Source: Colwellia sp.
GTDB lineage: Bacteria; Pseudomonadota; Gammaproteobacteria; Enterobacterales; Alteromonadaceae
DNA: 40,000 nucleotides
Assembly: GCA_020630795.1 (NCBI GenBank)
Contig: JAHDIK010000001.1
Coordinates: 22,341-62,340, forward strand
Direction: 5' to 3'
Shown: piece after piece, positions 19,358 through 20,804 of the stretch
Layout of the letters: every line of letters begins with the position of its first letter
Position numbering within the stretch: position 1 is the first letter of the stretch
Made by a program: the position numbers and the translations under genes
The notes under the pieces: generated by a model
The model's database searches: none
Told to the model about the DNA's origin: nothing
What the model saw: only the letters and a program-made list of their open reading frames with translations

Positions 19358-19390
19358 AAAAAGACCAAGGAAACTTGGTCTTTATTTTGG
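19358..19390. terminator. bidirectional rho-independent terminator
   Basis: Stem aagaccaag (19361-19369) pairs with cttggtctt (19374-19382), with T-runs on both strands. It sits between convergent genes. Confidence 0.65.
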
Positions 19391-19858
19391 TGAGTCTTCT
19401 GTTTTAGCATTTGCAATTTTATTAACTAAAACAAGAGTAATAATAAAAAGTTGAATTACATTATTGATGAGCGACATCATCATTAATCTGAACGCGATAC
19501 TTTGTGCTTGAGTGGTAAAGGTGACAATGCTGGTTGCAAAAGTTATGAATAGGCACGCTATTGTGATTTTAAATAATGTAAAAAAAACTTCAGAATTTCC
19601 ATCCTCTAGCCATCGCTTAAAAAATTTATATTTTTGCAGTGAAAATAAAAACGTAGCCATAGCGGCAAGAAAGCCAAGCATAGTAAAGCTAAACCCTGCA
19701 ATTATCGTAGAAAGTGTCCGGACATCAGTAAACCCCAAACTTAATTGAAATTTGGATTTAATAAACAAATAAATGAGGCCAAGTACTACGCCTATCAGTG
19801 GTGATAGATAAGCGACTTTTTTTAATTTAGCTATCTGAGTTTTCGTCATTTTTTTCAA
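19382..19858 (-). CDS. small four-TM membrane protein (158 aa)
   Basis: ORF with four hydrophobic helices. It overlaps the upstream 325-aa gene by 23-32 nt (TTG at 19858 or ATG at 19849). No family was recognised. Confidence 0.6.
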   Translation of the reverse strand: MKKMTKTQIAKLKKVAYLSPLIGVVLGLIYLFIKSKFQLSLGFTDVRTLSTIIAGFSFTMLGFLAAMATFLFSLQKYKFFKRWLEDGNSEVFFTLFKITIACLFITFATSIVTFTTQAQSIAFRLMMMSLINNVIQLFIITLVLVNKIANAKTEDSPK

Positions 19859-20804
19859 TCAATTGAGTCGATTCGTTAAATTTTGATTTATTGTTGTACG
19901 CCAATAAGTCAGCTTTCCCTGCAACTATTAAGTTGTTTTGGTTATCCACAAAGTTTTTATATAAGTTACTTAATTGTAGGTTGGAATCAAACTTTTCTCC
20001 TATTTGATCAGCTATATTTTTACGTTTGGTTCGCGGGTTTATTTTGTCAGCCAGAGAACTTTCATTATCTAGCCAATATTCCATCAGCTGTCCTTTGAAT
20101 TCATCATGTTTAGCCTTAGCACCAAGTTTTATTATTCCACTAGTATTATTACTTTCTTTACGAGAAATGATGCTTTTTAGGGCTTGTGTCATATTGCCAG
20201 CAGTAGGCTCTATAATAATTCTGAAACTTCCAACACCTGGAGTATTATCTCCCGCTAACTCTTTTAGCAAAGCCTTTCCTATTCCTTCATCAGCATCTAC
20301 GTCAACGTAAATGCTGTTAACAACTTCCATTTCGAGCAAATCCTTTTTGGATGCGCTCGATGATAGTGCTATCAATTCAATTTCAAAATCGGCTAACCCA
20401 ACTTTTATAAACAATTCATTGATATATTCTGCAAAAATATCAAACCTTGGACAGCCTATTCCGCTAGCTATAGCTAATACAGATTGATCTGTTGAAAAAT
20501 GTATATGAGAAGTAAATGCCATTTTTTCATTAGACTCAAGCTTGTCTCCCATACCTGTTACCGAAAAATCTTGTTCATTAATTCGCTTTAACAAGTCGTC
20601 ATTACTTGTTTTCAAAAAGTAGAATGTATTTTGATAACCATCGATTTTTGTCAGGTAGAGTTTATCATCACCACGTTTAAAACTAGTTTTCAGACTATTG
20701 TTTTCTGAGTGGTGAAATGCGGATGCAAAATCAGCAATGTTATGTAGGTATTTCTCTTGAGTTGAGACTTGTCTCAGAATGTAGGCAAAATAGTATAGCT
20801 TCAC
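19827..20804 (-). CDS. hypothetical cytosolic protein (325 aa), GTG start
   Basis: Long ORF with its own roughly 200-bp upstream intergenic region. It is translationally coupled to the four-TM gene. No family was recognised by eye. Confidence 0.6.
   Translation of the reverse strand: MKLYYFAYILRQVSTQEKYLHNIADFASAFHHSENNSLKTSFKRGDDKLYLTKIDGYQNTFYFLKTSNDDLLKRINEQDFSVTGMGDKLESNEKMAFTSHIHFSTDQSVLAIASGIGCPRFDIFAEYINELFIKVGLADFEIELIALSSSASKKDLLEMEVVNSIYVDVDADEGIGKALLKELAGDNTPGVGSFRIIIEPTAGNMTQALKSIISRKESNNTSGIIKLGAKAKHDEFKGQLMEYWLDNESSLADKINPRTKRKNIADQIGEKFDSNLQLSNLYKNFVDNQNNLIVAGKADLLAYNNKSKFNESTQLIEKNDENSDS

Follow-up and report, generated by a model that had tools for sequence, protein, structure and literature searches.

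A RexA/RexB-family gene pair on an integrative mobilisable island of Colwellia sp. as a probable abortive-infection module

Introduction

Rex is the oldest known abortive-infection system; the name 'RexAB' is also borne by an unrelated AddAB-type helicase-nuclease of Gram-positive bacteria. In bacteriophage lambda, RexAB makes the cell lose its membrane potential and ATP and halts the growth of T4 rII, and the stoichiometry between RexA and RexB is critical (PMC11077077; PMC12894663). In Pseudomonas putida, over-expression of RexA results in a RexB-dependent growth arrest and membrane damage (PMC12894663). The Rex-like systems characterised so far number only five and are all encoded by prophages; RexB acts as the effector in four of these, including both systems from Proteobacteria (PMC12894663). 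The RexA homologues of the actinobacteriophage Rex-like pairs have been found to dimerise and to bind DNA (PMC11077077). Here we describe a two-gene locus at positions 19382-20804 of a stretch of 40,000 nucleotides (nt) from Colwellia sp. (assembly GCA_020630795.1, contig JAHDIK010000001.1, positions 22,341 to 62,340; referred to below as the window), which an initial annotation had presented as an orphan module whose proteins belonged to no recognisable family. That view has to be abandoned, as the two proteins are identified as RexA and RexB by Pfam (for RexA), PADLOC, PHROGs and searches of PDB sequences and folds. On the basis of the family membership, architecture, conserved residues, pairing, rare and patchy occurrence and defence-slot location documented below, we consider it probable that the two genes form an abortive-infection (phage exclusion) module of the RexA/RexB family, which an integrative mobilisable island bears as exchangeable cargo and which lies outside any prophage immunity region.

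Results

The rexA-like gene (19827-20804, minus strand) begins at a GTG codon at 20804, ends on a TAA stop codon and specifies a soluble protein of 325 amino acids (aa) with an isoelectric point (pI) of 5.3, which is a clear member of the RexA family. The protein scored 137 bits against Pfam RexA PF15969, for which the gathering cut-off is 25, residues 1-232 being aligned with positions 1-228 of the 235-position model, and it was also matched by the PADLOC RexA model (4.6e-30) and by PHROG 12654, 'RexA-like exclusion protein' (6.3e-15). A sequence search of the PDB returned lambda RexA (8twq) as the sole meaningful match (4.7e-8), and lambda RexA taken from NC_001416 was found to be 26% identical to the window protein by BLASTP (expectation value (E) 2e-11). 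When an AlphaFold2 (AF2) model built on 22 homologues (predicted local distance difference test (pLDDT) 76.7, predicted template-modelling score 0.72) was submitted to Foldseek, 8twq was again the sole match below 1e-3, with an E of 2.6e-12, a probability of 1.0 and 320 aligned columns. In the model an N-terminal sheet is followed by a middle domain of four strands and four helices and then by C-terminal helices running back to the first domain, a layout which is that published for lambda RexA, namely a split globular domain together with a four-strand/four-helix dimerisation domain (PMC11077077). DNA binding by lambda RexA is abolished in the R219/K221 double alanine mutant (PMC11077077), and these two residues align with K230, which is K or R in all members of the clade of homologues described below, and with K232, which is invariant. 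The C-terminus is approximately 40 residues longer than that of lambda RexA and includes two residues, L300 and F309, that are invariant in the clade, followed by a variable acidic tail. No nuclease or other toxic domain was detected in the RexA-like protein by Pfam scan or Foldseek.

The rexB-like gene (19382-19849, minus strand) starts at an ATG at 19849, ends on a TAA stop codon and encodes a 155-aa protein with a pI of 10 and four transmembrane helices. The hydrophobic segments of this protein (residues ~12-32, 45-71, 86-113 and 122-146) are colinear with those of lambda RexB, and its AF2 model consists of four long helices (pLDDT 80.3); as no hydrophobic segment is present in the larger protein, the initial description of a soluble protein paired with a four-pass membrane protein holds. 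The PADLOC RexB model (PDLC02340) was matched by 20 of the 20 clade members (best 8.2e-15) and, at 1.3e-9 and across model positions 17-136 of 141, by the window protein, no other PADLOC family being matched, while lambda RexB itself scored 202 bits on the same model. The PADLOC run proposed in the initial annotation as a check thus called both proteins, one as RexA and the other as RexB.

The relationship to lambda RexB was traced further by running a RexB clade profile over 1.84 billion representative proteins at E <= 1e-3, which yielded 168 clusters, nearly all with lengths of 90-170 aa. Of the 149 cluster members that were retrieved, 65 were matched by a hidden Markov model (HMM) of the relatives of lambda RexB, 12 of them at 30 bits or more over nearly their full length, and reversed and shuffled control sequences gave no match to this HMM; the window protein scored directly on the lambda-clade HMM reached 4.2 bits. 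It is these bridging intermediates that link the window protein to lambda RexB, and these sequence comparisons place it within a broad RexB superfamily that extends outside the narrow family defined by Pfam. The best conserved soluble part of the RexB-like protein is a basic loop (residues 72-87) between helices 2 and 3. Several close homologues of lambda RexB (P0064, P0069, P0071 and P0082) are named 'biopolymer transporter ExbB' by NCBI; an ExbB relationship of the RexB family was considered and rejected, as neither Pfam nor Foldseek searches supported this label, probably a misannotation that has been passed on.

Both proteins have full-length homologues in Shewanella, Pseudoalteromonas, Vibrio, Aeromonas and metagenomes, with identities of 41-65% for RexA and 38-75% for RexB, and Photobacterium and Cronobacter yielded further RexB-like homologues. 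As full-length homologues with 41-75% identity occur in at least five genera, rexA and rexB are real genes, and some of the homologues have already been named 'RexA-like intracellular sensor of abortive infection system' by NCBI. Within the clade the RexB-like partner is better conserved than RexA (75% versus 65% and 71% versus 61% identity). In all seven homologous loci examined the rexB-like gene directly follows rexA, with an overlap of 29 nt or 4 nt or a gap of 1-51 nt, and no third conserved gene was present beside rexAB across these seven loci. The pair is found beside defence genes and beside serine or tyrosine recombinases. In Vibrio parahaemolyticus its neighbours include AbiV, a helicase and a T5orf172 protein as well as a MmeI-type restriction-modification (R-M) enzyme, and in Pseudoalteromonas they include a methylase, a Zeta toxin and HetE-N together with a D5 primase and two integrases. 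In Vibrio crassostreae (L010:5496-9492) and V. parahaemolyticus (L013:5499-9505) a large serine recombinase has rexAB as its first cargo, and many small genes of unknown function come next; the recombinase itself follows a short 220-aa Mg-chelatase-like open reading frame (ORF), which may be a gene cut short by the insertion. These Vibrio loci represent another type of element bearing the same pair. In Shewanella sp. 10N.261.52.F9 (L011:6812-13726) a small rexAB element, comprising a resolvase and part of an integrase, adjoins groES and a 547-aa ORF in the groEL position, which, together with the groEL neighbourhood of the window, suggests a shared integration hot spot.

A more distant RexA-like gene (21-24% identity) is present in nine records of small Acinetobacter plasmids. 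In the one plasmid examined, p1_010005 of Acinetobacter chinensis (L014:3001-4321), this gene overlaps a 158-aa RexB-like ORF that is missing from the distributed gene table, and both proteins match the PADLOC Rex models. A tblastn search of 50,697 phage genomes gave no match, and neither 40 relatives of the host nor a further 399 genomes from the same class had a RexA family match; a search of genome contigs with the RexA alignment gave 26 pattern matches, none of which was confirmed. The family is rare, patchy and horizontally acquired. Literature searches turned up nothing relevant about RexAB in V. crassostreae or about its presence on mobilisable or conjugative elements.

The module lies on an island (12333-28238, plus strand) that is integrated just downstream of groEL (window 10455-13538) and whose tyrosine integrase gene adjoins groEL; the island further encodes AlpA, replication/processing functions, MobC, a relaxase and a T4 coupling protein. 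As mating-pore genes were not seen in it, the island is an integrative mobilisable element; direct repeats of at least 11 nt were not found between its presumed ends. A sister island is present in a genome (G021) of the same family and another genus, the relaxases of the two islands being 97% identical. By blastn, window 10461-19383 is 89% identical to the sister island, window 20965-22855 is 95% identical and window 22850-29254 is 94% identical. The segment between the first two of these stretches (19384-20964, minus strand, 1,581 bp), which contains rexB, rexA and 160 bp of upstream DNA, is replaced in the sister island by 5.6 kb (L021:930-6523) encoding, in the same orientation, an 889-aa PHP/AAA ATPase (PADLOC Ppl, 3.1e-24), a 299-aa SIR2 protein (ThsA, 1.7e-30) and a 204-aa ORF. 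The exact exchange of rexAB for other defence genes identifies the segment as a defence cargo slot, which is limited by a shared terminator on one side and by the end of a rhuM-linked membrane gene on the other. The 204-aa ORF of the sister slot had no family match, and the Ppl-like ATPase, the ThsA-like SIR2 protein and this ORF may constitute an undescribed combination. The initial annotation had set proximity of homologues to defence genes as a test in advance, to be weighed against any match to transport or conjugation functions: both the homologues and the slot proved to be defence-associated, and no transport or conjugation family was matched.

The ORF coordinates given initially, and the overlap of 23-32 nt between the coding regions, were reproduced by the ORF listing. 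The larger value corresponds to an alternative rexB-like ORF (19382-19858, minus strand) of 158 aa that starts at TTG 19858, and the smaller to ATG 19849. The latter is the likely start, as an aligned Met opens every homologue and the recorded gene call is of 155 aa; GTG 20804 of rexA similarly lines up with the ATG or TTG starts of six homologues. A Shine-Dalgarno sequence is not visible at the rexB-like start inside the 23-nt overlap, and this arrangement suggests that translation of RexB is coupled to that of RexA, so that the ratio of the two proteins is fixed. Neither gene contains an in-frame TGA codon and both stop at TAA, and they should thus be readable by the host whatever befalls the TGA-containing genes of the island backbone. 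When TGA was read as Gly, three long frames appeared in window 14817-18959, one of 420 aa with 4 TGA codons, one of 481 aa with 8 and one of 277 aa with 4; the DUF2958 gene stops on TGA, and with TGA as Gly would extend to 245 aa.

The approximately 200 bp upstream of the pair (20805-21005) are free of ORFs, and homology to the sister island ends at 20965. The 160 bp of non-coding DNA that belong to the module (20805-20964, minus strand) travel with rexAB, which is indirect support for a promoter of its own. A single sigma-70-like site (TTAGCA-17-TAAAAT, 20849-20821) was found upstream of rexA, a match to the consensus only, and as sigma-70-like matches in the 20805-21005 region are scarcer than in shuffled sequence (11 versus 21.6) this site is no proof of a promoter; nor was a conserved promoter or operator common to the upstream regions of the seven homologous loci. 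The promoter region claimed in the initial annotation therefore stands as an ORF-free stretch that moves with the genes, while the promoter itself is a plausible candidate. The bidirectional terminator reported at the other end of the pair was found as a strong hairpin (19360-19383) whose 10 pairs are all perfect (-12.3 kcal/mol, z = -4.7) and which is flanked by T runs on either strand, located between rexB on the minus strand and the convergent DUF2958 gene on the plus strand, where it forms the left edge of the cargo slot. Apart from this hairpin no notable repeats occur inside the locus, and scans of the window revealed neither an Rfam family nor a tRNA.

From groEL (10455-12107) onwards the gene order in the window is tyrosine integrase, AlpA, replication/processing genes, DUF2958, rexAB, a 257-aa membrane protein, RhuM, a 110-aa HsdM stub, a WYL regulator, MobC, relaxase and coupling protein. 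The genes from the membrane protein to the WYL regulator (21006-24084, minus strand) lie outside the module, and the WYL regulator, R-M remnant, rhuM and mobile element named in the initial annotation were all confirmed. RhuM (PADLOC PDC-S05, 1.8e-139) is followed 22 nt on by the 257-aa protein (window 21006-22821), which has four hydrophobic regions and no family match; the two may form a two-gene unit, as the sister island retains both genes together (95% identity). The HsdM stub (window 22828-23160) is, judged against G021, the remnant of a deletion of approximately 9.6 kb. At this position G021 (L020:6137-16057) encodes a 521-aa HsdM, a 404-aa HsdS, a PrrC-type anticodon nuclease (PADLOC PrrC, 2.5e-127) and a 1037-aa HsdR, together with two ORFs of unknown function and a PDC-S11 protein, and this region is a classic prr-type R-M/abortive-infection locus.

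Discussion

The sensing, interaction, channel activity, stoichiometry and defence phenotype of the Colwellia pair are proposed here on the model of lambda Rex and of RexABpp from P. putida. The RexA-like protein would act as a dimeric, non-specific DNA-binding clamp, employing K230 and K232, that detects an intermediate, either DNA or DNA-protein, made by the phage. Activated RexA would then contact the cytoplasmic face of the four-helix RexB protein, probably at the conserved basic loop 72-87; by the positive-inside rule this loop is predicted to face the cytoplasm, as are the N- and C-termini. RexB may in response open as an oligomeric channel or pore, and the ensuing collapse of membrane potential and ATP would arrest growth and leave the phage cycle uncompleted. 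The coupling suggested by the gene overlap would set the RexA:RexB ratio, which is critical in lambda. The proposal of the initial annotation that the pair is an abortive-infection-type anti-phage system carried as mobile cargo appears well founded in this respect, being supported by the Rex homology, the defence genes nearby and the slot in the sister island.

Several results weigh against this assignment. Pfam RexB PF15968 gave no match to the window protein (E <= 1) and matched only 2 of 20 relatives, with a best E of 0.025. When the clade was compared by hhalign with lambda RexB, alone or as a clade profile, the probability was 12-23%; the alignment runs end to end and pairs a Thr-Met of helix 2 that is invariant in both clades. 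Foldseek with the RexB-like model returned no significant or informative match in BFVD and PDB, a weak match to a Sbash protein having an E of 3.4; the structure prediction and Foldseek check suggested initially thus led from the RexA model to 8twq and was uninformative for RexB. The RexA model itself superposes poorly on 8twq overall, with a template-modelling (TM) score of 0.39-0.47 and a root-mean-square deviation of 14.7 A. This low global score would fit domains set at another angle, or an arrangement that was mis-modelled; lambda RexA itself adopts a closed form in the crystal versus an open form in AlphaFold (PMC11077077). No cI-like repressor or phage genes are located near the pair, unlike in most described Rex systems, and the roles of the two proteins are reversed in one Rex-like system, Butters gp30/gp31 (PMC12894663).

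If the logic of Butters applied here, the soluble RexA-like protein would be toxic and the membrane protein would restrain it until infection. The extra conserved C-terminal segment of RexA, with the invariant L300 and F309 and the acidic tail, is a candidate for such a role; however, RexB is the effector in the other four characterised systems, the two proteobacterial ones among them, the RexB-like partner is the more conserved of the two, as expected of an effector, and no toxic or nuclease domain was detected in RexA, so that we regard a reversal as quite unlikely. It is very unlikely that the pair instead serves the island, RexA tuning its decision on excision or transfer (WYL, AlpA), and RexB perhaps shielding labile proteins from Clp proteases. 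Precedents for both activities exist in lambda, where RexA biases the cI/Cro bistable switch independently of RexB, and RexB inhibits the degradation of lambda O and of antitoxins by ClpXP/ClpAP (PMC11077077), and a WYL regulator and AlpA do reside on the same island. Against this, the near-identical backbone of the sister island has no rexAB and carries unrelated defence genes in its place, which argues that the backbone does not need the pair, and the homologues are found on quite different elements that have no regulator in common.

That the genes are silent or decaying cargo, intact by chance and of no current function, might be entertained in view of the adjacent hsdM, reduced to a 110-aa stub by the ~9.6-kb deletion in an island that is already without most of its type I R-M system, and of a promoter that is a weak consensus match. 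Both frames are nevertheless full length, every position that is invariant in the clade has been kept, and start, overlap and terminator are all intact, which makes such decay highly improbable. A function in transport, conjugation or entry exclusion, unrelated to phage, would suit a pair situated between two DNA-processing modules of a mobilisable element, and could draw on the NCBI label 'biopolymer transporter ExbB' of some lambda RexB homologues. Given that no transport or type IV secretion system family matches either protein, that the RexA match is strong and specific, and that the ExbB label has no supporting match, such a function is hardly credible. The reading of the pair as a Rex-type phage exclusion module is retained as the probable one. 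An unlikely extension of it is that the clade represents a mechanistic Rex variant adapted to life outside prophages, in which the C-terminal extension of RexA acts as an autoinhibitor or as an arm for docking RexB, and foreign DNA is sensed in general. If this were true, the variant would be a DNA-entry alarm of mobile elements, responding to conjugative, satellite or phage DNA, and not a device against prophage superinfection.

The Colwellia pair adds a member to a known defence family that is rare and has been little studied; it does not represent a new kind of system. It belongs to a coherent marine gammaproteobacterial clade, the members of which combine a recognisable RexA carrying a C-terminal extension with a RexB that falls outside the Pfam model. 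According to the 2021 DefenseFinder preprint, the RexAB models of that programme were taken from Pfam or COG, and since the RexB of this clade escapes Pfam, DefenseFinder would probably under-call the clade. For annotation, the pair should be named rexA/rexB-like and not hypothetical. The clade occurs on islands and elsewhere outside prophages, and this repressor-free setting offers a way to tell apart the part that Rex plays in defence and the part that it plays in the lambda switch. The exchange of rexAB for Ppl-like and ThsA-like genes in the sister island exactly delimits a slot for defence cargo within a family of mobilisable islands.

Among the known systems with which the pair can be compared, Kiwa (KwaA/KwaB) is likewise a defence pair of a membrane and a soluble protein, albeit with the opposite gene order and different folds; it was considered and rejected, as the PADLOC matches included no Kiwa model and the Pfam matches no KwaB DUF4868, in agreement with the initial annotation, which had set Kiwa aside. 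RdgC, a recombination-associated, ring- or clamp-like DNA binder, has been reported as a structural homologue of lambda RexA (PMC11077077), but it serves a housekeeping function, lacks a membrane partner and was not among the Foldseek matches of the window RexA model. The actinobacteriophage pairs Sbash gp30/gp31, CarolAnn gp44/gp43 and Butters gp30/gp31 resemble the window pair in comprising a soluble and a four-transmembrane protein, and differ in that they reside in prophages of Actinobacteria and are triggered by specific phage proteins, the roles being reversed in Butters. Sucellos (SclA/SclB), from the superintegron of Vibrio cholerae (bioRxiv 10.1101/2024.07.02.601686), is a RexAB-like two-gene defence system of a marine gammaproteobacterium that resides elsewhere than in classical lambdoid prophages and in which both genes are required; it is reported to lack a match to the Pfam domain and to be an integron cassette, whereas the window RexA is a strong Pfam match encoded on an island with integrase and relaxase.

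RexABpp of P. putida prophage P1 (PP_5643/PP_5644; PMC12894663) similarly consists of a RexA-like DNA binder and a four-transmembrane effector. It is a tested two-gene, membrane-damaging defence system. RexApp was detected by HHpred only, and its RexB has no detectable homologue, while the window RexA passes the Pfam threshold with ease. RexABpp is also prophage-borne and located near a CI-like repressor, which the window pair is not. With respect to lambda RexA/RexB (PF15969/PF15968; 8TWQ), the window RexA is 26% identical and extends ~40 residues further at its C-terminus, and the window RexB is related via intermediates only and misses Pfam RexB. Furthermore, rexA and rexB of lambda are 15 nt apart and embedded in the cI/PRM context, whereas the window genes overlap by 23 nt and have their own upstream region on an integrative mobilisable island. 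These differences notwithstanding, the window pair shares with lambda the order rexA-rexB, the RexA fold, the small four-transmembrane partner, the basic dyad and matches to both PADLOC models.

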